A DNA stretch of 64,000 nt, from NCBI GenBank assembly GCA_964355335.1, contig CAYHDB010000002.1, positions 3,192 through 67,191 on the forward strand, in the 5' to 3' direction. The translations under genes and the position numbers were made by a program. Below the pieces are notes generated by a model, which was not told the DNA's origin, ran no database searches, and worked only from the letters and a program-made list of their open reading frames with translations. Shown here piece after piece: positions 788-57,230 of this stretch. Source of the DNA: an uncultured Candidatus Saccharibacteria bacterium. Lineage in GTDB: Bacteria; Patescibacteriota; Minisyncoccia; Phycocordibacterales; SIBU01. Numbering within the stretch: the stretch's first letter is position 1; each line of letters opens with the position of its first letter.

Positions 788-1885
788 CTAGCGGTTCATC
801 GGCATTACCAAATACGTAAAGTTCCTATCCCCTACCCCTCTTATCACCACAGGTCTTCCTTGTCCGGCAAAAGACAGGGATACACTGTCTGTGGTGATAG
901 ATTGCAGACAGTCAGCGATATAGCGGTAATTGAAATTAGCTTCCACACTTTCGCCGGTAAGAGCGGCATCTAGCAATGAGCTGTTTTCTCCAAGGTTGTT
1001 GTTTTTAGTAGTCAGCTCAAACTTTTTTTCTTTAGGGTTGATTGCAATACCAACCTGGTTAAACGTATCAGAAAAAATATTGGCTACTTTGAGCGAACGC
1101 ACCAAATCTTCCTTCAAAACAACCGCTTCGGTCTTGAACTCCTTAGGAATAATTTGTCTGTAGTCTGGGAAAGTGCCGTCCACCACTCTGGAGGTGAGGT
1201 ATGTACCGCCGGAGACAAACGCTATCTGATTTTTGTTAAGTCTCACTTCTACCAAACCCGAAACCCCCTCGAGTATTCGAATAATCTCCGGAACATTTTT
1301 GAACGGAATAAGAACTTTATCAAAATCCAAGGTTTTCATTTTGACTTTCTGCTCGGCTAGACGAAAAGAATCTGTCGCCGCAAACACCGCATAACCATCC
1401 TCTGGATACACATAAACGCTCGCTAGCTCCGCTTTTATACTTGAAACGGAGGAACTGTACCAGACCGCTTTTAAACCTCTCACAAAGTCTTCTGCGTTAA
1501 TCTCAAAGTGCTTTTCCTTGGATATCTCCGGGATAGTTGGAAAATCTTCTACAGGCAAACACTTAATTGAAGTTTTACTCCTTGTGGTGGTTACTGAAAG
1601 CAAATTCTCACTTCCACTCAACTTCACACTCTTCTCTCCTGTAAGGCTTGAAATAAAAGATGAAAGGGTGCCTGCGGGGACAGCAAGAACACCCTCCTCC
1701 TCGACTTTCGCCGGCATAAAACTTTCAAATCCCAAGTCGAGGTTTGTGGCTCGGATAGTGACGCCATTTTTCTTAACATCTAAAAGCACACAAGACAGTA
1801 CAGGTAAGTTTAGATTCCTCCCAGCAATTTTCTCAGCCTGTGAAAGAATCTTTTGTAATTTGTCTTGTACACATTCTGTTTTCAT
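788..1885 (-). CDS. dnaN: DNA polymerase III beta sliding clamp
   Basis: 365 aa, typical DnaN length and N-terminal MK..LxxxLxxV.. pattern. Directly downstream of dnaA. Confidence 0.9.
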   Translation of the reverse strand: MKTECVQDKLQKILSQAEKIAGRNLNLPVLSCVLLDVKKNGVTIRATNLDLGFESFMPAKVEEEGVLAVPAGTLSSFISSLTGEKSVKLSGSENLLSVTTTRSKTSIKCLPVEDFPTIPEISKEKHFEINAEDFVRGLKAVWYSSSVSSIKAELASVYVYPEDGYAVFAATDSFRLAEQKVKMKTLDFDKVLIPFKNVPEIIRILEGVSGLVEVRLNKNQIAFVSGGTYLTSRVVDGTFPDYRQIIPKEFKTEAVVLKEDLVRSLKVANIFSDTFNQVGIAINPKEKKFELTTKNNNLGENSSLLDAALTGESVEANFNYRYIADCLQSITTDSVSLSFAGQGRPVVIRGVGDRNFTYLVMPMNR

Positions 1886-2090
1886 ATACTTTATATAAAT
1901 ATATTACTACTATTAACTATGGGGATAACCTGTTTAGCTTATTTATTTATAAATACCAACGTATTTTAAAGAGAAGAATTGCTCGAAGGTCGGACAGTTT
2001 GTGGGGTAATTGTGTGGATAAGAATTTGGTCTGTATTTATCCCCAGTACGAACAGAGGTTTTCCACACAAAATGCACAGGTTGTTAAAAA
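1886..2090. promoter_or_regulatory. oriC: Probable oriC: AT-rich dnaA-dnaN intergenic region with four DnaA-box-like 9-mers
   Basis: tatggggataacc (~1921-1933, TTATCCCCA rc), tgtggataa (~2015-2023, perfect TTATCCACA rc), ttatcccca (~2036-2044), ttttccaca (~2062-2070). AT-rich spacers. Classic position between dnaA and dnaN. Confidence 0.6.
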
Positions 2091-3434
2091 TCAGAGAGTA
2101 GCTCGTATCTGATCCAGTTCTTGCTCGAGGCTAGGATTTGTCTTCAGCTCCTCTTTTATCTTCTCACAAGAGTGAATCACGGTAGTGTGGTCTCTCCCCC
2201 CAAGTTTCTGCCCTATCAAAGGATAAGAAACACCAAAGTCTTGTCTGAGTAGATACATTACGAGTTGTCTGGGTCGCACCACTTCCTTTCTCCTTGTCTT
2301 CTCGTAAATGTCAGCCTCCTCTATGTTGAAGAAATTGGAGACGGCCTTTGTGATTTCTTTTACAGAGACCGCCTTTTTAGGTTTGGCACTGTTTCTGATA
2401 AGATTTTTCACTTCAGTAATACCAAGCTCCTTCCCTTTTAGTTGAGACTGGCAGATTAAAACATTGAGCATCCCTTCTAGTTCACGAATGTTCCCCTCTA
2501 TTGTAGAAGCCAAGTGCTCCAAAACATCGGGAGCGAACGAAATAAGGCTTTGTTTGGCCTTTGTTTTAAGGATAGCAAGCCTCGATTCCCTATCAGGTGT
2601 AGGAATATCGATAATCATCCCAGCAGAAAAGCGGGATTTCAAACGGTCCTCCAATCCAGGGATAAAATTCGGGTGTTTGTCCGATGAAAAAACAATTTGT
2701 TTGTTTTCCTCGTGGAGACAATTGAAGAGATGGAACAATTCTTCCTGAGTCTTCTCTTTGTTTGAAAGGAATTGAATATCGTCCATTATCAAAATATCGT
2801 ATTTGCGATATTTATCTTTAAAGGCGTTCACTTTGTTTGCCTGAACCGAGTTCACATAATCTATCGCAAACTTTTCGGAGGTAACGTAATAAACTTTTTT
2901 ACCAACACCTTGATTTTTTATATGATTGCCGACGGCCTGTATCAGGTGAGTCTTTCCGTGGCCGGTGTTTCCGTATATAAAAAGAGGATTGTAGGCTTGG
3001 CCGGGTTTTTTCACCACCGCTTGGGCTGCCGCGTGCGCCAATTCGTTGAAAGGACCTACGACGAATGACTCAAAGGTGTATTTGGGGTTTAAATTGTTCT
3101 CCTTGTCTATGTAGAAGTCAGCAAGAGGCAACTCCGCCGTCGGCCCTGTATGGCTTTTTTGTACGTCTCCCTCTTTTCTTTTCCCATCATCTTTTGAGAT
3201 TTGGTACTCTACTGACCTTATGTTTTCTGACAGGTTTCTCAGTGATTTGAGAATAGACTTGTGGTATTTATTGAAAAGCCAATCCTTCGCAAAAGCATTT
3301 GGAACCGATACGAAGACAACCCCATCCTCTTGTTTTAGGATGCGAGTATCTTTAAACCAGGTGTTGAAGTTGGCTCTCGATACTGCGAGTTCTATTTCCA
3401 CCAGCACGTTGCTCCAGAGTTGTTCGTTTTCCAT
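2091..3434 (-). CDS. dnaA: Chromosomal replication initiator DnaA
   Basis: 447 aa. AAA+ Walker A GNTGHGKTHL, C-terminal DnaA-box-binding helix-turn-helix (..LIGQKLGGRDHTTVIHSCEKI..). Confidence 0.95.
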   Translation of the reverse strand: MENEQLWSNVLVEIELAVSRANFNTWFKDTRILKQEDGVVFVSVPNAFAKDWLFNKYHKSILKSLRNLSENIRSVEYQISKDDGKRKEGDVQKSHTGPTAELPLADFYIDKENNLNPKYTFESFVVGPFNELAHAAAQAVVKKPGQAYNPLFIYGNTGHGKTHLIQAVGNHIKNQGVGKKVYYVTSEKFAIDYVNSVQANKVNAFKDKYRKYDILIMDDIQFLSNKEKTQEELFHLFNCLHEENKQIVFSSDKHPNFIPGLEDRLKSRFSAGMIIDIPTPDRESRLAILKTKAKQSLISFAPDVLEHLASTIEGNIRELEGMLNVLICQSQLKGKELGITEVKNLIRNSAKPKKAVSVKEITKAVSNFFNIEEADIYEKTRRKEVVRPRQLVMYLLRQDFGVSYPLIGQKLGGRDHTTVIHSCEKIKEELKTNPSLEQELDQIRATL

Positions 3435-3514
3435 AAATATTTTAAGTGTATCCCATTATATACTCCTTTGATTACCTGTGAGCTTGCGGAGAACGGTTAA
3501 ATATGTTTATAATG

Positions 3515-3523
3515 TGTGGATAG
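3515..3523. promoter_or_regulatory. DnaA-box-like 9-mer (tgtggatag) upstream of dnaA
   Basis: 8/9 match to TTATCCACA (rc), ~80 nt upstream of the dnaA start. Likely autoregulatory or a second origin lobe. Confidence 0.35.
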
Positions 3524-3530
3524 AGTGTGA

Positions 3531-3620
3531 ACAACTGAATTACACATTACCTGTAACTGAATAACTGAATGACAAGGCCAGGTTTTGTCCCAAAAGTTAT
3601 TCTGTCATTCAGTTGTTTGT
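3531..3620. repeat. ACTGAAT-heptad palindromic element (same architecture as the TACGAA elements, different heptad)
   Basis: Left arm aactgaat/aactgaat/aactgaatga, core ggccaggttttgtcccaaaag, right arm tcattcagttg. A second copy is at 30890-31033. Confidence 0.7.
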
Positions 3621-3641
3621 TATAAGTCATAAGTTTCTTAC

Positions 3642-3776
3642 ATGTCATTCACATACAAACCTAAAAAGAAGAAAAGAGCTAGAACCCACGGTTTTTTGGC
3701 TAGACAAAGAAAACATGGAGGACGAAAGGTCCTTGTTGCCAGGCGCCGTAAAGGACGCAAGAAGTTGGCCGTCTAA
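3642..3776 (+). CDS. rpmH: 50S ribosomal protein L34 (44 aa). Not in the supplied ORF track; found by manual translation.
   Basis: atg tca ttc aca tac aaa cct .. translates to [44 protein letters not shown]. Canonical L34 core (RTHGF..R..GR.VL.RRR.KGR..L) and canonical position before rnpA. Confidence 0.85.
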
Positions 3777-3782
3777 TCTCGC

Positions 3783-3887
3783 TATACGAACATACGAAAG
3801 GGTACAGATATACGAACATATACGAAAAACTTCTTGATCCCTGTTCGTATAATTTCGTATATTTCAGTGACCTTAATTTTCGTATTA
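3783..3887. repeat. TACGAA-heptad palindromic element, copy 2, between rpmH and rnpA. The right arm ends 2 nt before the rnpA ATG.
   Basis: atacgaacatacgaaagggtacagatatacgaacatatacgaaaaa | core cttcttgatccctg | ttcgtataatttcgtatatttc..ttttcgtatt. Confidence 0.85.
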
Positions 3888-3889
3888 CT

Positions 3890-4231
3890 ATGATTCCCTC
3901 CTCTCGAAAGGTAGACAAAACTCTCTTTAAAACCCTGGTCTCTAAGGGTAAATGGGTAAACTCCGACCATTTTAATGGTCGTGTTTTGCTGTTAGGTGGT
4001 AATTATAAATCCAAAATATCAGTAGTCGTGCCAAAGAAGCTCGAAAAGAGCGCTGTAAAACGTAATGTATTAAAACGCCGTTTGTATTCAGTGGTCAGAA
4101 ATTGTCTTGGTCAGATGGTGACAGGCTCGGTTTGTGCGCTATTTGTAAAGAAGGGTTTCAGCACCAAGGAGCTTACCCTCTTAAAAAAGGAGGTCTCGGA
4201 TTTTATGGTAAAAGCGAAGCTGGTTTCCTAG
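3890..4231 (+). CDS. rnpA: Ribonuclease P protein component
   Basis: 113 aa, basic. Motif ..KSAVKRNVLKRRLYSVVRN.. follows the RnpA RNR-like motif. Classic rpmH-rnpA-yidC order. Confidence 0.8.
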   Translation: MIPSSRKVDKTLFKTLVSKGKWVNSDHFNGRVLLLGGNYKSKISVVVPKKLEKSAVKRNVLKRRLYSVVRNCLGQMVTGSVCALFVKKGFSTKELTLLKKEVSDFMVKAKLVS

Positions 4232-10461: not shown

Positions 10462-10589
10462 AAGTTCCTCCTTTATTAAAGGTCGGAGTCCTCGGAGATA
10501 CGTCGGCGAAGGTGGCACATTCCGATGTGACGGAGGATTTAAATCCCTCCCCCTCGCAGACTCAGGTACTCCCTTTAGGAAAGGGAGAA

Positions 10590-14297: not shown

Positions 14298-16060
14298 CTA
14301 CATAGGCTCTCGGTATGGATCACTATTCTGTCCTACCCCAGGCTTGTTCGAAGTCACAACACTGGAAAGTTTCTGGTCTAGAATGTTTTTAGCTGATACT
14401 CCTTGCACAGGTATGGCGGTGCTGATTGGTTTTTGAATAGCTGGTTGAGCGACAGGAGGCGTTGTGATTTTGGGAGACATAATTGGAGCGGAAGGCAAAG
14501 GCTTTTCCGACATCACAGGAGGTGGTACTGAGCGGAGAGAATCAAGTTTTTGTCCAAGAGCTCCTCTTTGGATGACAGGTTCAGGTGGTTTAGGCAATGT
14601 TCCAGGTTGCCACGGAGTGTCCTGTGCTTGTACTCCTGGCTTTACGGCATCTGAGGAGGAAGGTTCTGAGGATGAAGAGGTTGTCGTCTGAAATTCTCCC
14701 TTGTTAAAGGTCGAAGTCCTCGAAGAAACGTCATCGAGAGTACCGCTTTCGGAAGCGGGGAGGGATTTAAATCCTCCGTCCTCGCCGACTTGGACACCTC
14801 CTTTAGTAAAGGTCGGAGTCCTCGGAGATACGTCGGCGAAGGAATCTGAAACAGGGATTCCCGTTTTTGGTTTCATTGGAACAGGAAGAGACGGACCTTG
14901 TGCCGGAGTGGTCTGGGCACTAGCTGGGGTAGCCTTGTTGTCTCGAAACCAGAGTGGTTTTGGATTTTCTATGTCACGGAGAATTGTAGCTCGGTCCGGC
15001 ACTTCCCCGCTGTCAGTACCGCCAAGGTTTGGGGCTGGTTTTGTAGAAGCCACTTGCGCAACCGGTTTTATAGGTATCGGCGATGAAGGTGTGGGAGGCA
15101 CGGTCTCTTCATGAATTTGCTTCAAGGCCTCTCTGATTTTTAGAAAAACTTCTGTGTTTATCTCTTGTGCAACCAACTTTACTTTCTCTTCAGAAAGACC
15201 GAGACGTCTGGAAAGATGAGGCAGGAATTGTCCCGGATGTGTAAAGCCAAGTATCACCATTCCTGTCTCCGCACCAAGCTCCCCTATCTTGTCCACATGA
15301 AGAGCGTATTTCCTGCCGATGTCCACCACCTTTTTGGCGGAGTCCACAGAACGTAGGGCCTCTTTTAGTTTTAGTGGCAGTTTTTCATACTGTTGGACCA
15401 TTTCTTTTTCAGAAACTCTACCATCAAGCATACGCAGAAGAGACTCAATCGGTTTCTCTGACATTTGTGTGTGGCTGGTCTCCATTATCGGTGGTTTCAT
15501 TCCCCCAAATCTTGAGTCAGTCTCTCCTGTCGGCAGGTTGCTTGGAGGTGGAGCGTATGTAGATGAAAATGTTGCACCTCGTACTACGGGTGGAGGAACA
15601 GTCGTTTGACCCCACGACGAAGATGGTGGCGGAGGAGCCATTCTTTTCGGAGGCAGTCTTGATGGCAAAGGCTGTGACAAGACAGAATCAACAACTTCAA
15701 GCCCTTCCACTTTCGGTGGAGCGGTCTGTACGGAAAGTTCTATCGGGATTTTGATTCCAAGTGCCGGAAGAAGTTTGGAAAAAATCTTCTCACTGATTAA
15801 GGAAACAATCTGAGGTATTTTTTCTCTGTTGTCTTCGTCAATCTTTTCGGTTAACCCCGCTTCAAAATCCTTCGGTTGACGTTCCTTCGTAATTATCTGC
15901 CGTACCAACTCGCACACCTCACCGATCTCCCGCATGGTCAATCCGACAACGTCCGCAATTCCCTCTATGGTGAATACCAGATTGTCATTCTCAACAACGG
16001 ATATTGCAGATGGAGGCAGTTTGCTGGTAGCAACAGTTAACTTATCGAATTGTTCGGTGT
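14298..16060 (-). CDS. Pro-rich hypothetical protein with internal peptide repeats (SPRTPTFTKG / SRTSTFNKG)
   Basis: Likely start MSYTEQFDKLTV. Structured N-terminal domain followed by a Pro/Ser/Thr-rich region. DNA 14700-14850 shares a repeat with the DUF559 flank (10470-10590). Confidence 0.5.
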
Positions 16061-42987: not shown

Positions 42988-43513
42988 ATACCGGCAATCA
43001 AAACGATTGCCGGTTTTCTTTTTTCAAGTTTCGTTTATCGACTACCCCAGCACCAATTTTGCTTTTTCAAGATAATTTCTTTACTGAGTGTGTTATTCGT
43101 TTTAAATAGTAGGTCAATGCGCTTCGCCGACTAGGTAAGTGCTATTCGCACACGCACATTAGGCCTTAAACTATAAGCAAAATTGATGCGGGGTCCGCGA
43201 AAATCACAGTCGTGTCCTTTAGGCACTCCTTGATTTTCGGGAGTTATCCACAGTTTGTCTTTTACTTGTCCTTTACAGGTGATATACTGTTTGCAGGTCA
43301 GTAGCGGATGTGCCGCTCTGACAAATAGGTCTTTGATAGTCAAAACTCTTGACTCTGAGATTCTAGAAAGTTTCTACTTTCGTTAAAAAATATTTTCTCA
43401 CACATCTTTAAAATTCGGAAAATATATTTTTTTAACCCGAGAAAGCGACAAGACAGAATCTCCTATTTAAACCGCCACAAGCAAAAGTATTGCATTAGAG
43501 CATGTCCCAGTGT

Positions 43514-43522
43514 TTATCCACC
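43514..43522. promoter_or_regulatory. Perfect DnaA-box-like TTATCCACC in the loop of a 10-bp hairpin (tagagcatgt..acatgctcta) in a 680-nt noncoding region
   Basis: Read directly at 43496-43545. Terminator ccgcctgtaggcggtttctctt follows at 43553-43578. Confidence 0.3.
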
Positions 43523-43718
43523 GATGAACCTTGAAACATGCTCTAAACATTACAACCGCCTGTAGGCGGTTTCTCTTATAATCGAAAATTTCGGCACATT
43601 TCTTTGTTGCTTCGCCCATTTGCTCCCGCGGAGTACTGTTCGTACACCTTGGTCGCAAGCCGAGCTCGCGCCTCGAACTGTGCACGTAATTTTCAATTAT
43701 AAGCCCCGTATTTGCTAG

Positions 43719-45329
43719 TTATTCCACGTGATACTTCCCTCTTATCTCTTTTATATTTTCCTCCTCAAGCTTGTCTTTTTTGTCTTTACCCTTATCTGCC
43801 AACGTTTTAAGCTCTTTTTCAGATAATTGTGAAAGTTCCGTTGCACGTTTCACCAGAAACATCTCCTCATTAAGCTCAGGTTTTTCAAGTACTTCTTCCA
43901 TCAAAGCATTTAAAATATGGCCAACCTTCGGTCCCGGTGTTACATGTGTAACCTCCATTATCTTATTTCCATCAATCTTGAGCATTCCGACAGACACCGG
44001 ATCTCTCATGACTTCCTCAAGCATTGCCTTATACTTTCTGAGTCTATAAGGGTTTTCCTTCGGTCTCCCGGTACCGATACGGTCACAAATACGAAGATTC
44101 ATCAGATCCCATACGTTGTCGTGGCCCACCTTAGCCAGTAAACGCCTGACGGCTGAAGGGGTAATTTGTTCGGTATCTGAGAAAAACATATGCCAACGTA
44201 CCATTTTCGATACTTTTTCTATTGTTTTCACGGGAAACCTCATCCTTTCTAGGATTTTCTTGGTTACCCGAGATCCTACAACCTCGTGGCCGTAAAATGT
44301 ATATTGTTTTGTTTCAGGTGAAACTCTCCGTGTTTCTGGCTTGGAAACATCATGAAAAAGAGCAGAAAGCCTTATTTCTAGAGACCATTTCTTGTCAGCG
44401 GCGTGTTGGAGCGACCTTAGGAGGTGTTCCCATACCTCAAAGGCATGAGCTTGATTTTGTTTTATACCTATTCCGGCCTCTAGCTCTGGCGCGATGTATT
44501 TCAAGATACCCAACTTTTGGCTAAGAATAATGCCAATCATAGGGTTGTCGGACATAAGAATCCTTATGAACTCGTCGCGAATTCTCTCCTGAGCAATACC
44601 CTTAAGTAAATCAGCGTATTTCTGTATTGCAACAGCAGTTTCGGATTCTATGGTGAAACTCAGCTCAGTGGAAATTCTAACGGCACGGAGCATTCTAAGG
44701 GCATCCTCGGCGAATCTATCATGAGGATCACCGACAGTGCGGAGTACTTTCTTGGAAATATCCTCTTGTCCTTTATAGAGGTCGGTCAGCTGTCCTTTAT
44801 AATATAACGCGCCGGTTTGGCGCATTTCTTTGTTGCTTCCTCCTCCCTCTCCCGCGCTGTAGGATACTACCGCTTGGTCGCGTTGCTCGGTCGCGCCTCG
44901 AACTGCATCCAAACCGACGTGTTCTATATCCAAAGCAATCGCATTCACAGTAAAATCCCGTCTTTGCAAGTCGTCCTCGAGTTTCTTGCTCCAAGATACA
45001 CTATCCGGCCTCCTTTTGTCGGAATAGTCCGATTCAAGCCGATAAGGAGTCACCTCCACAATCTTCAATGTCTCATCCGACGCTGTTTCGTTGACTACCC
45101 CCACTGTACCGTACTTGTTTTCGTAAAAAGTCTTTGGAAATAAGCCTATAATCTCCTCGGGAGTAGCATTCGTGGTGAAATCCCAGTCTTTCGGCTTTCT
45201 TTTTAGGAGTATGTCGCGGACACAGCCACCTATCAAATAAGCCTCAAATCCAGCCTTTTTTAAGGTTTCTGAGACTTTGGTGACTTCATCAGGTAAGTCA
45301 AAAGTAGTTTTGCCCTTTGTGATTGCCAT
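43719..45329 (-). CDS. cca: CCA-adding tRNA nucleotidyltransferase with C-terminal HD domain, carrying an in-frame ~30-aa GC-rich insertion
   Basis: Pol-beta NT motif ..LIGGCVRDILL... ..RRDFTVNAIA... HD ..ALFHDVSKP... Insert ..GATEQRDQAVVSYSAGEGGGSNKEMRQTGALYYKG.. interrupts the conserved ..D..G(G).DL....ir.vg.p.. block. Confidence 0.8.
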   Translation of the reverse strand: MAITKGKTTFDLPDEVTKVSETLKKAGFEAYLIGGCVRDILLKRKPKDWDFTTNATPEEIIGLFPKTFYENKYGTVGVVNETASDETLKIVEVTPYRLESDYSDKRRPDSVSWSKKLEDDLQRRDFTVNAIALDIEHVGLDAVRGATEQRDQAVVSYSAGEGGGSNKEMRQTGALYYKGQLTDLYKGQEDISKKVLRTVGDPHDRFAEDALRMLRAVRISTELSFTIESETAVAIQKYADLLKGIAQERIRDEFIRILMSDNPMIGIILSQKLGILKYIAPELEAGIGIKQNQAHAFEVWEHLLRSLQHAADKKWSLEIRLSALFHDVSKPETRRVSPETKQYTFYGHEVVGSRVTKKILERMRFPVKTIEKVSKMVRWHMFFSDTEQITPSAVRRLLAKVGHDNVWDLMNLRICDRIGTGRPKENPYRLRKYKAMLEEVMRDPVSVGMLKIDGNKIMEVTHVTPGPKVGHILNALMEEVLEKPELNEEMFLVKRATELSQLSEKELKTLADKGKDKKDKLEEENIKEIRGKYHVE

Positions 45330-45388: not shown

Positions 45389-45460
45389 GCGCCCATGGTG
45401 AAACGGATATCATAAATGCCTTCGAAGCATTCGTTGTAGGTTCGAGTCCTACTGGGCGCA
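45389..45460 (+). tRNA. tRNA-Arg (anticodon TCG)
   Basis: Acceptor GCGCCCA/TGGGCGC. Anticodon arm AATGC-CTTCGAA-GCATT. T-arm GTAGG-TTCGAGT-CCTAC. Bidirectional terminator aaaaaacctccactgctggaggtttttt follows. Confidence 0.75.
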
Positions 45461-45565
45461 CACATAGCAAAAAACCTCCACTGCTGGAGGTTTTTTGCTA
45501 TGTGTGCGAGCCGGAGGTGTGGTCAATTTTTCCAAAACCGAACCCGTGTGATATACTTCTATGAC

Positions 45566-46249
45566 ATGCGAAAAGATAAGGAAAAAGCTCAAGTTTTGCG
45601 AAAGATCGGTAAAAGTTATAATGAAATAAAAGAGGAACTTGGTGTTCCGAAAGCTACTCTTTCCGATTGGTTCAGAGGACAAGCTTGGTCGAAAGAACTT
45701 TCAATAAAGCTCGTTGAGAAAGCAAGTGGCGCACACACAGTTCGAATTCAGGAACTGAATAGAATTCGCGGTGAAAACCTAAAAAAACTATACCTGGAGG
45801 CAGAAAATGAGGCGGTAGCAGAGTTTGAATTGCTTAAATATCACCCCCTGTTTATAGCCGGCTTAATGATTTACTGGGGCGAGGGCAACAAAGTATCGAA
45901 AAATCGTTGCTCGATTGCTAATACGGAACCTTTAATGATAAAGTTGTTCTTGTTATTTCTGAAAAATATTTGCAGGTTCAAGGGTTCCAAAATCAAGGCT
46001 TGGATTCTGATTTATCCGGATCTCGATGAAAAATTGTGTAAAAGTTTTTGGGTGGGAAAAACAGGTTTATCATATGAAAATTTTACAAAAAGTATGCTTA
46101 TTCAGGGTAAGCATAAAACAAACCGATTGTCATTCGGTGTTTGCAGTGTTGGGGTTTCTAGTGCATACTTAAAGCGAAAGATTTTGAAATGGATTGAATT
46201 ACTTGCTTTGGATTTGGTTAAAGAAAATTACATTGCGGGCATGGTTTAG
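45566..46249 (+). CDS. Hypothetical protein with N-terminal helix-turn-helix and a weak LAGLIDADG-like segment (..LFIAGLMIYWGEGNK..), between two tRNA genes
   Basis: Start MRKDKEKAQVLRKIGKSYNEIKEELGVPKATLSDWF (helix-turn-helix). The 3' end overlaps tRNA-Gly by ~15 nt. Confidence 0.4.
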   Translation: MRKDKEKAQVLRKIGKSYNEIKEELGVPKATLSDWFRGQAWSKELSIKLVEKASGAHTVRIQELNRIRGENLKKLYLEAENEAVAEFELLKYHPLFIAGLMIYWGEGNKVSKNRCSIANTEPLMIKLFLLFLKNICRFKGSKIKAWILIYPDLDEKLCKSFWVGKTGLSYENFTKSMLIQGKHKTNRLSFGVCSVGVSSAYLKRKILKWIELLALDLVKENYIAGMV

Positions 46250-46307
46250 CGGTATAACGTTACCTTGCCAAGGTAAAAATCCGGGTTCGACTCCCGGTGC
46301 CCGCACC
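46235..46307 (+). tRNA. tRNA-Gly (anticodon GCC)
   Basis: Acceptor GCGGGCA/TGCCCGC. D-arm GTT-TAGCGGTAT-AAC. Anticodon arm TTACC-TTGCCAA-GGTAA. T-arm CCGGG-TTCGACT-CCCGG. Confidence 0.8.
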
Positions 46308-56736: not shown

Positions 56737-56957
56737 ACACAAAACCCACCGAATGGTGGGTTTTGTGTTTATCTTGCCTGCGCAGACAAGTAAGAGGGTG
56801 TTTGGGAAGTAATTTGGATGCAGTTCGAGGCGCGAGTGAGGCCGTCTACAGGCGCCTATCACTAGTCGATAGGCCTTGCGACCAAGCTGTAGTATGAGCT
56901 ACTGCGCGGGAGCAAACGAGTGAAGCAACGAAGAAATGTGCCAAATTACAAACCAAA

Positions 56958-57230
56958 CTATCGAACTGCATCCTTGAGAGCCTTTGCTGCGCGGAACTTT
57001 GGCACTTTCATGGCAGGGACCTGAAGAGTCTCACCTGTGCGTGGGTTGCGAGCTTGTCTGGCGGCGCGAGCCTTGACCGAGAAGATTCCTAGTCCCGCAA
57101 TAGATACTTCGCCACCTGCTTTTAGTGTATTGACGATAGAATCAACAACCTTGTCTACTGCCTGTTCGGCTTGGACCTTAGTTCCTCCCAAAACGACTTG
57201 CACAGCTTCTGCAATTCCTTGTTTATTCAT
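56958..57230 (-). CDS. hup: HU-family nucleoid DNA-binding protein
   Basis: MNKQGIAEAV..GEVSIAGLGIFSVKARAARQARNPRTGETLQVPAMKVPKFRAAKALKDAV. Canonical HU arm R.GRNP.TGE. Confidence 0.9.
   Translation of the reverse strand: MNKQGIAEAVQVVLGGTKVQAEQAVDKVVDSIVNTLKAGGEVSIAGLGIFSVKARAARQARNPRTGETLQVPAMKVPKFRAAKALKDAVR

Follow-up and report, generated by a model that had tools for sequence, protein, structure and literature searches.

Imperfect palindromes of ~125 bp are known from enterobacteria as ERIC/IRU; they are conserved across species, lie in either orientation in transcribed intergenic DNA and occur in longer variants that stem from insertions at fixed internal sites. To our knowledge, ERIC has no recognised terminal repeats, target-site duplication or transposase partner. 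ERIC is listed in PMC10969869, which also covers the Rickettsia palindromic elements (RPEs), sequences of ~100-150 bp that are found in frame in unrelated genes, including essential ones, and are thought to be tolerated at the protein surface. QMITE1/QMITE2 of Coxiella and Correia of Neisseria are MITEs (miniature transposable elements with inverted repeats) that overlap open reading frames (ORFs), create fusions and yield or modify small RNAs and transcripts (PMC5896051). Among the insertion sequences (ISs), ISAba11 is a member of the IS701 family (PMC9771954) and gives 'characteristic 5-bp direct repeats', for instance the AT-rich TATAG and ATTTA (PMC7885321). The current study concerns a stretch of 64,000 nt (positions 3,192 to 67,191 of contig CAYHDB010000002.1, assembly GCA_964355335.1; hereafter the window), in which a GC-rich element occurs inside and beside cca, the gene of the CCA-adding enzyme. 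The host belongs to the Parcubacteria/Patescibacteria of the Candidate Phyla Radiation (CPR), and the best homologues of its cca are found in Taylorbacteria-like and other Patescibacteria metagenome-assembled genomes (MAGs).

We propose, with good confidence, that the element represents a family of ~125-bp MITEs with IS701-type ends, of which an old copy lies in frame in cca and adds a tolerated loop to the enzyme. The proposal is built on direct observations, namely a dispersed family with inverted repeats, target-site duplications and empty sites, the match to IS701 ends, an unbroken reading frame and the loop's position. The features of the window that bear on it are the following.

43575..43703, minus strand: copy 1, an intergenic element in the cca 3' region, 129 nt, with a 16-bp closing inverted repeat CTTATAATCGAAAATT / AATTTTCAATTATAAG.
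43719..45329, minus strand: cca, class II CCA-adding enzyme with HD domain, 536 aa (Pfam PolyA_pol, PolyA_pol_RNAbd and HD; PDB homologues 6ibp and 1miv).
44803..44926, minus strand: copy 2, the element within cca, 124 nt as bounded by 18-nt arms TAGAACACGTCGGTTTGG ... CCAAACCGGCGCGTTATA, which are complementary at 15/18 positions.
44808..44912, minus strand: 105 nt gained, in net terms, over the empty cca alleles; codons 140-174, LDAVRGATEQRDQAVVSYSAGEGGGSNKEMRQTGA (LDAVRG...EMRQTGA).
56800..56957, plus strand (sense strand of the element): copy 3, 158 nt, intergenic, with the HU gene on one side and a bidirectional terminator on the other.
56840..56875, no strand assigned: a nested GC-rich hairpin of 36 nt in copy 3, between GAGG and CTTGC of the core.
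56958-57230, minus strand: the HU gene, which adjoins copy 3 and faces it with its stop codon.

A first-pass annotation, made from the sequence alone, had described two copies of ~95 nt, near 43593-43686 and 44818-44909. Both were recovered there, with 76% identity in each of two ungapped blocks (43590-43635 against 44816-44861 and 43643-43680 against 44868-44905). The units are longer than had been thought, spanning 124-158 nt with their closing inverted repeats, which are specific to each copy, and they number three in the window: motif searches exposed copy 3 on the opposite strand, downstream of the HU gene. The 20-mer GCRCATTTCTTTGTTGCTTC has 3 matches in the window with up to 3 mismatches, against 0.02 expected, and TCGCGCCTCGAACTG has 3 exact matches, or 4 with up to 2 mismatches, against 0.08 expected. 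A covariance model, run over the whole window with filters off, returned exactly three copies at 119.6 (copy 1), 107 (copy 2) and 75.6 bits (copy 3), all of which belonged to its training alignment, and the next-best match scored 22.8 bits. Copy 1 lies in sense orientation, on the same strand as the cca mRNA, and copy 2 is in frame and free of stops.

Beyond the window, about 90 further copies were collected in total from MAGs and groundwater metagenomes. A three-block pattern search gave 29 genomic loci in about 15 species-representative Patescibacteria/Parcubacteria MAGs, single MAGs holding as many as 7, 5 and 4 copies, and a second pattern search gave 70 metagenomic loci, for the most part from groundwater. 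Young copies are found in the MAGs Greene1014_15, PMV_2_maxbin.003 and ERP119705_co20_252. Viral contigs searched with the core pattern yielded zero matches. Rfam 15 was searched at gathering and permissive thresholds; tRNAs were its only matches in the window, and neither the element (E<=10) nor four other loci had any. A six-frame protein-word search was set aside as insensitive; it returned five proteins, essentially all of them N-terminal mis-calls rather than internal inserts, and missed cca. In locus L030, which shares synteny with the window (RNase Y - HU - ... - cca), the orthologous places of copies 1 and 3 are clean empty sites; at that of copy 3, the HU stop codon is followed directly by the conserved CTTGTCTGCGCAGGCAAG. 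With its dispersed copies, terminal inverted repeats, 5-bp duplications and empty sites, the family bears out the first-pass suggestion of a small mobile element.

The canonical copy is 124-125 bp long (the modal length) and consists of a ~88-nt core inside 18-bp terminal inverted repeats (TAGGACTTACGCAGTTGG ... CCAAsTGCGTAAGTCCTA), the arms being complementary at 14-18 of 18 positions in most copies. A perfect, AT-rich 5-bp target-site duplication, for instance CTTGT, AGTAA, TTGTT, CAAGA, AATTT or TTAAA, flanks 17 of 59 unique copies with anchors placed mechanically and 22 of 59 after correction of the right anchor, against 3.8% when upstream flanks were paired with the downstream flanks of other copies. 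The element has no conserved ORF or transposase gene, and its reading frame shifts with loop length. By its size, terminal inverted repeats, fixed-length duplications, dispersed copies and filled and empty sites, it is a MITE; a palindromic element of the REP/RAYT or IS200/IS605 type is ruled out by the 5-bp duplications and the true terminal inverted repeats.

The terminal repeat connects the family to an identifiable transposase. It is identical at 18/18 positions to the right end of ISMesi2 and at 16/18 to the left end; complete ISMesi2 copies have the ends TAGGAGTTACGCAGTTGC and TAGGACTTACGCAGTTGG, both of which were read in two species. In Meiothermus taiwanensis ISMesi2 is flanked by a clean 5-bp duplication, GCGGA, and in Allomeiothermus silvanus by 7 matching nucleotides, which is ambiguous. 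The repeat was also present in two viral contigs, L033 and L034. In L033 it overlaps a stop codon, that of the gene for a DDE transposase of 333 aa, which scores 405 bits against NCBIfam IS701_2 (NF049921); this contig ends at the transposase start, the other ISMesi2 end having been read from plasmids, and the same transposase is annotated as 'IS701-like element ISMesi2 family transposase' on a plasmid of Allomeiothermus silvanus. The identity of the repeat with an end of ISMesi2, an IS that likewise makes a 5-bp duplication, therefore also marks the element as a MITE. Since MITEs with different interiors have this repeat and this duplication length, the repeat is the mobilisation module and the 88-nt core its passenger. 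The core has no similarity to the IS701 transposase or to ISMesi2 subterminal DNA, and a remnant of this kind was found in a sister MITE only.

That sister MITE lies in L034 (IMGVR_UViG_3300046710_000257), a circular viral contig of 14,966 nt. It is a different MITE of ~180 nt (14912-14966 joined to 1-125), bounded by the same 18-nt repeat; its duplication is AGTGA, and it retains a transposase C-terminus remnant (E = 1e-4). It suggests that the MITE superfamily is carried by phages. In Parcubacteria group bacterium Greene1014_15 (L018), three copies of the present element are clustered within positions 800-4000, together with two other hairpin MITEs that have the same terminal repeat and other interiors, one at 1181-1312 (duplication TTTAT) and one starting from 2936. 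Both arms of the element copy at 3790-3915 have changed in a coordinated way, to CGGATGTACGCA / TGCGTACATCCG.

Within cca, the ORF runs through copy 2 without a stop and all invariant catalytic columns are intact. The first-pass annotation was right that the frame is unbroken, and its figure of ~30 added amino acids has to be raised: compared codon by codon with the empty alleles of P0003, P0005 and P0007, its nearest relatives, the gene shows a net gain of 35 codons. The orthologue P0002, encoded in L030, is filled at the same codon and also by 105 nt, and an alignment of cca orthologues, most of which have no insert, confirms an insertion. The L030 copy contains in addition a nested hairpin of 33 nt, a multiple of three. 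Around the cca copy, the candidate duplications, TGATA/TTATA beside the outer arms and GGTT beside the net insert, are ambiguous. A palindrome (AAGGAC-GGT-GTCCTT) in P0003's empty allele resembles joined termini of the element; it was judged coincidental, as it codes for the conserved loop K-D-G-V-L.

The insertion site is a beta-turn between RRDFTVNA and DLYKGQED, known as motif B and motif C of class II nucleotidyltransferases. The solved CCA-adding enzyme 6ibp has no more than 4 residues between the aligned flanks. An AlphaFold2 model of the window protein, built with 79 homologues, has a mean predicted local distance difference test score (pLDDT) of 87.8 and a predicted TM-score of 0.81, and leaves residues 141-174 below pLDDT 50, flanked by strands 132-136 and 176-182. 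The insert most likely adds, as modelled, a disordered surface loop of ~35 residues. Three more copies were found inside ORFs, those of a histidine phosphatase (a domain is interrupted internally), a signal peptidase I (in its N-terminal tail) and a glycosyltransferase (close to its start); all three have the same orientation and the same 5' frame, LDAVRGASEACDQAV. These copies agree with the likeness to in-frame RPE insertion that the first-pass annotation had pointed out. Because the frame is kept in all in-ORF cases, the insert is probably translated rather than removed. It would appear to be harmless to the CCA-adding enzyme. In P0025, a cca product of another Parcubacteria lineage, the same loop between motifs B and C holds, in frame, a GC-rich hairpin with a 17-bp stem (L105, 3446-3489), which was considered as a degenerate copy of the element and rejected as unrelated. 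Because this unrelated hairpin sits there in frame, the loop is a permissive site.

From these results we propose a series of steps. A DDE transposase of the IS701 family (ISMesi2/ISAba11 type) would move the element in trans, and the ends and duplications lead us to infer that such trans-mobilisation has taken place within Parcubacteria genomes. Copy 2 would have landed in cca in sense orientation and in a phase free of stops, within the beta-turn that separates motifs B and C. The ribosome would then read through copy 2 and add ~35 residues of disordered surface loop, which the enzyme would tolerate.

In comparison with the known systems, the present MITE has in common with the IS701 family (ISMesi2, ISAba11) the terminal repeat and the 5-bp duplication, and with ISAba11 the AT-rich targets. 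Unlike these ISs, it has no transposase gene, its interior is an unrelated 88-nt core rather than a shortened IS, and it resides in Parcubacteria, in whose sampled loci the cognate IS was not found. Like the RPEs, it is a palindromic element of ~100-150 bp that lies in frame in ORFs. The likeness to the RPEs is one of behaviour; the hosts belong to another phylum, ~4 of 60 copies lie in ORFs, far fewer than reported for RPEs, and inverted repeats and duplications are clear in the present family, whose transposase family can be identified. With ERIC it shares, by description, its size, rod shape, cross-species conservation and fixed internal insertion sites, and it differs from ERIC in having terminal repeats, duplications and a link to a transposase. 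QMITE duplications are 2-3 or 7-11 nt long and the Correia duplication is TA, so that the present family, which is known from DNA alone, differs from both in duplication length, as well as in size and hosts.

Several observations weigh against the proposed MITE. No target-site duplication was found at any of the three window copies; given these absent duplications and the diverged arms, the three copies are old. The net gain in cca is 105 nt instead of 124 + 5, and the original insertion event is not cleanly reconstructable. A tblastn search with the ISMesi2 transposase found no IS701-family transposase in 707 kb of element-bearing loci, and the matching autonomous element, ISMesi2, comes from Deinococcota and not from CPR. 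Contrary to ordinary MITEs, the core is conserved above the terminal repeats, and in sub-families with different arms both arms have changed together, with double changes in 13/13 outer pairs. Finally, the insert is present in P0001 and P0002 and absent from P0004 (93% identical to P0002), P0005, P0007 and P0003, which is the nearest relative of the window protein. To account for this distribution, the insert must have been lost several times or gained twice at the same codon; loss is plausible where short repeats flank a hairpin.

The core itself is strongly conserved. In an alignment of 61 copies, the blocks GGATGCAGTTCGAGGCGCGAG, GCGACCAAG, CGCGGGAG and GAAGCAACrAAGAAATGCGCC are near-invariant; three of the near-invariant blocks were preset by the search patterns and the rest were not. 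On either strand, the core can fold as an imperfect rod with covarying stems. In this scheme 87.7% of the cells are paired, against 28-46% in slid controls, and double changes are seen in 32 of 44 pairs (shuffles: 19.0 +/- 1.9). The inner helices GCUCG/CGAGC, CCAAG/CUUGG, CCGAC/GUCGG, UUGC/GCAA and AUGC/GCAU covary, the purine-rich internal loops GAGGCGCGAG / GAAGCAACGAA with their tandem G.A pairs are nearly invariant, and in the majority form tandem G.A pairs take the place of two Watson-Crick pairs. A local hairpin proposed by RNAalifold (GGCGCG/UGCGACC) was set aside for the rod, as its pairs are invariant or change on one side, whereas the inner helices of the rod show double changes. Small GC-rich hairpins are nested in the core at four fixed positions only. 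The core is also depleted in stop codons, 3.74 of 6 frames being open against 2.02 +/- 0.13 in shuffles.

The conservation and the fold would be explained if the ~88-nt core were a functional structured nucleic acid, likeliest a cis-acting RNA, for which the IS701-type repeats serve as vehicle and of which old copies are kept by purifying selection. This is compatible with the MITE explanation, and a genuine function of this kind, which would make the core a new structured module of CPR, is doubtful in our judgement, though to be taken seriously. Besides the rod pairing, the covarying helices, the alternation of tandem G.A with Watson-Crick pairs and the fixed sites of the extra hairpins, the comparison of orthologous copies speaks for it. 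The cca copies of the window and L030 share site, phase and orientation, their arms are each other's best match (70%, against 42-58% with any other copy), and they are here taken to be orthologous. While the two cca genes are 75.6% identical in nucleotides and 53% identical at third codon positions, the family-invariant blocks of the inserts are identical at 68 of 71 nt, and third positions of codons for the same amino acid are identical at 19/19 sites in these blocks against 225/416 elsewhere in the gene (p = 1.5e-5). Similarly, an orthologous copy in L021/L022 that abuts the rplC start codon is 94.6% identical, against 74-78% for the flanks and the L3 coding sequence; a third orthologous pair, L042/L086, shows no excess identity. 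Set against a functional core, the balance of G.U against A.C (77 vs 89, after excluding one conserved U.G) shows no asymmetry and gives no transcribed strand, and Rfam matches no family at either threshold. Young copies lie mainly antisense to the neighbouring genes (13 to 4), old copies are evenly divided (9 to 9), and the overall orientation is mixed; by estimate, the difference with age is not significant. The window cca copy retains the blocks, but its copy-specific segments have diverged and it has lost two inner helices. Moreover, one transposase recognising both arms, or correction from arm to arm, could yield the paired changes of the outer stem.

The conservation of the blocks could also reflect short-patch gene conversion (concerted evolution), or two recent independent insertions into a hot spot, rather than selection at the locus; we regard this reading as unlikely. 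The conserved blocks are exactly those conserved family-wide while copy-specific segments diverge freely, the L030 core is 91-93% identical to the family consensus whereas the window cca copy reaches at most 76-78% with anything, and independent gain fits the patchy phylogenetic distribution of the insert. The agreement of the two cca copies in site, phase, orientation and arms argues the other way, as does the similarity of the adjoining flanks, which is no higher than in the remainder of the gene; conversion would moreover have had to act on blocks of just 21-25 nt, near the lower length limit of RecA for homologous recombination. Nucleic-acid selection, short-patch conversion and independent insertion are all possible accounts of the block conservation.

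A further reading, stated in the first-pass annotation, is that the insert is an ancestral, lineage-specific loop of the CCA enzyme and the intergenic copy its local duplication. What that annotation had named as the refuting observation was indeed found, in that the orthologue P0002 in L030 has the insert and no intergenic copy; the conclusion attached to it does not follow. Copy 1 is 84% identical to elements of other genomes, and its identity with the cca copy is 69% in the core but 42% in the arms; because it is nearer to the foreign copies it is an independent insertion and not a local duplicate. With ~90 copies, inverted repeats and duplications in unrelated contexts of other genomes, and with no insert in the nearest relatives of both carriers, an ancestral loop is very improbable. 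It is just as hard to believe that the element is excised from the cca transcript as an intron-like or ribozyme-bearing insert, leaving a protein without it: the closing stem does juxtapose both borders and the loops are conserved, but the frame and the absence of stops, neither of which splicing needs, are kept in four ORFs and across the 33-nt nested insertion, no ribozyme or intron family matched, and self-splicing introns are far larger than the ~105-125 nt of the element. In favour of excision, intervening sequences are a known feature of the rRNA genes of CPR (PMC11270868).

The results therefore support a new MITE family of known type and the Rickettsia-like reading of its cca copy. CPR/Patescibacteria have very small genomes, and their mobile DNA is known mostly as intervening sequences of rRNA genes; in the literature searched we found no description of MITEs in them. 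The proposed family indicates that non-autonomous transposons are active in CPR genomes and in at least one presumed virus of theirs, and that such elements remodel essential proteins through in-frame insertion, as RPEs do in Rickettsia. If the conservation of synonymous sites in the core were functional, it would reveal a new cis-acting RNA or DNA module: a mobile cis-acting RNA that is both translated and functional as RNA, with selection freezing synonymous sites inside a gene that codes for an essential enzyme and within a ribosomal-protein operon leader. For groundwater metagenomes, filled and empty sites could provide markers of strains and lineages. The elements also cause spurious N-terminal extensions and small ORFs in automated gene calls. 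In P0065, P0122, P0121, P0123 and P0125, which are public calls of cca, HU, a pilin-like protein and others, the N-terminal extensions consist of the translated element just upstream and are an annotation artefact of its stop-poor sequence.

Other observations concern single copies and their surroundings. In L036 and L037 the flanks are orthologous (75-79% identical) and the element is oppositely oriented, which points to insertions that occurred independently at nearby places, or else to inversion in situ between the arms. The nested hairpins of copy 3 (56840-56875) and of the L030 cca copy (33 nt, ~10480-10512) have the 11-mer CCGTCTACAGG in common and occupy different positions in the two element copies, which may be a sign of a second mobile hairpin that is smaller still. 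Between the HU gene and a convergent ORF, the window contains the palindrome CTTGTCTGCGCAGGCAAG followed by the bidirectional terminator (56745-56800), and a 26-nt stretch of this region is identical in L030 despite its intergenic position. On the other side of cca, an intergenic block at 43460-43580 (plus strand), with a long hairpin at 43495-43546 and a terminator-like hairpin and T-run at 43557-43580, is ~95% identical to L030, while the DNA from the block to cca is unalignable; Rfam has no match to the block, which is a candidate small RNA gene. Finally, a 249-aa ORF (45500-46249, plus strand) is wedged between tRNA-Arg (45389-45461) and tRNA-Gly (46235-46307); its Pfam match is limited to a weak HTH_3, it contains a LAGLIDADG-like stretch, IAGLMIYWGEGNK, and it may be a free-standing homing-endonuclease-like gene.

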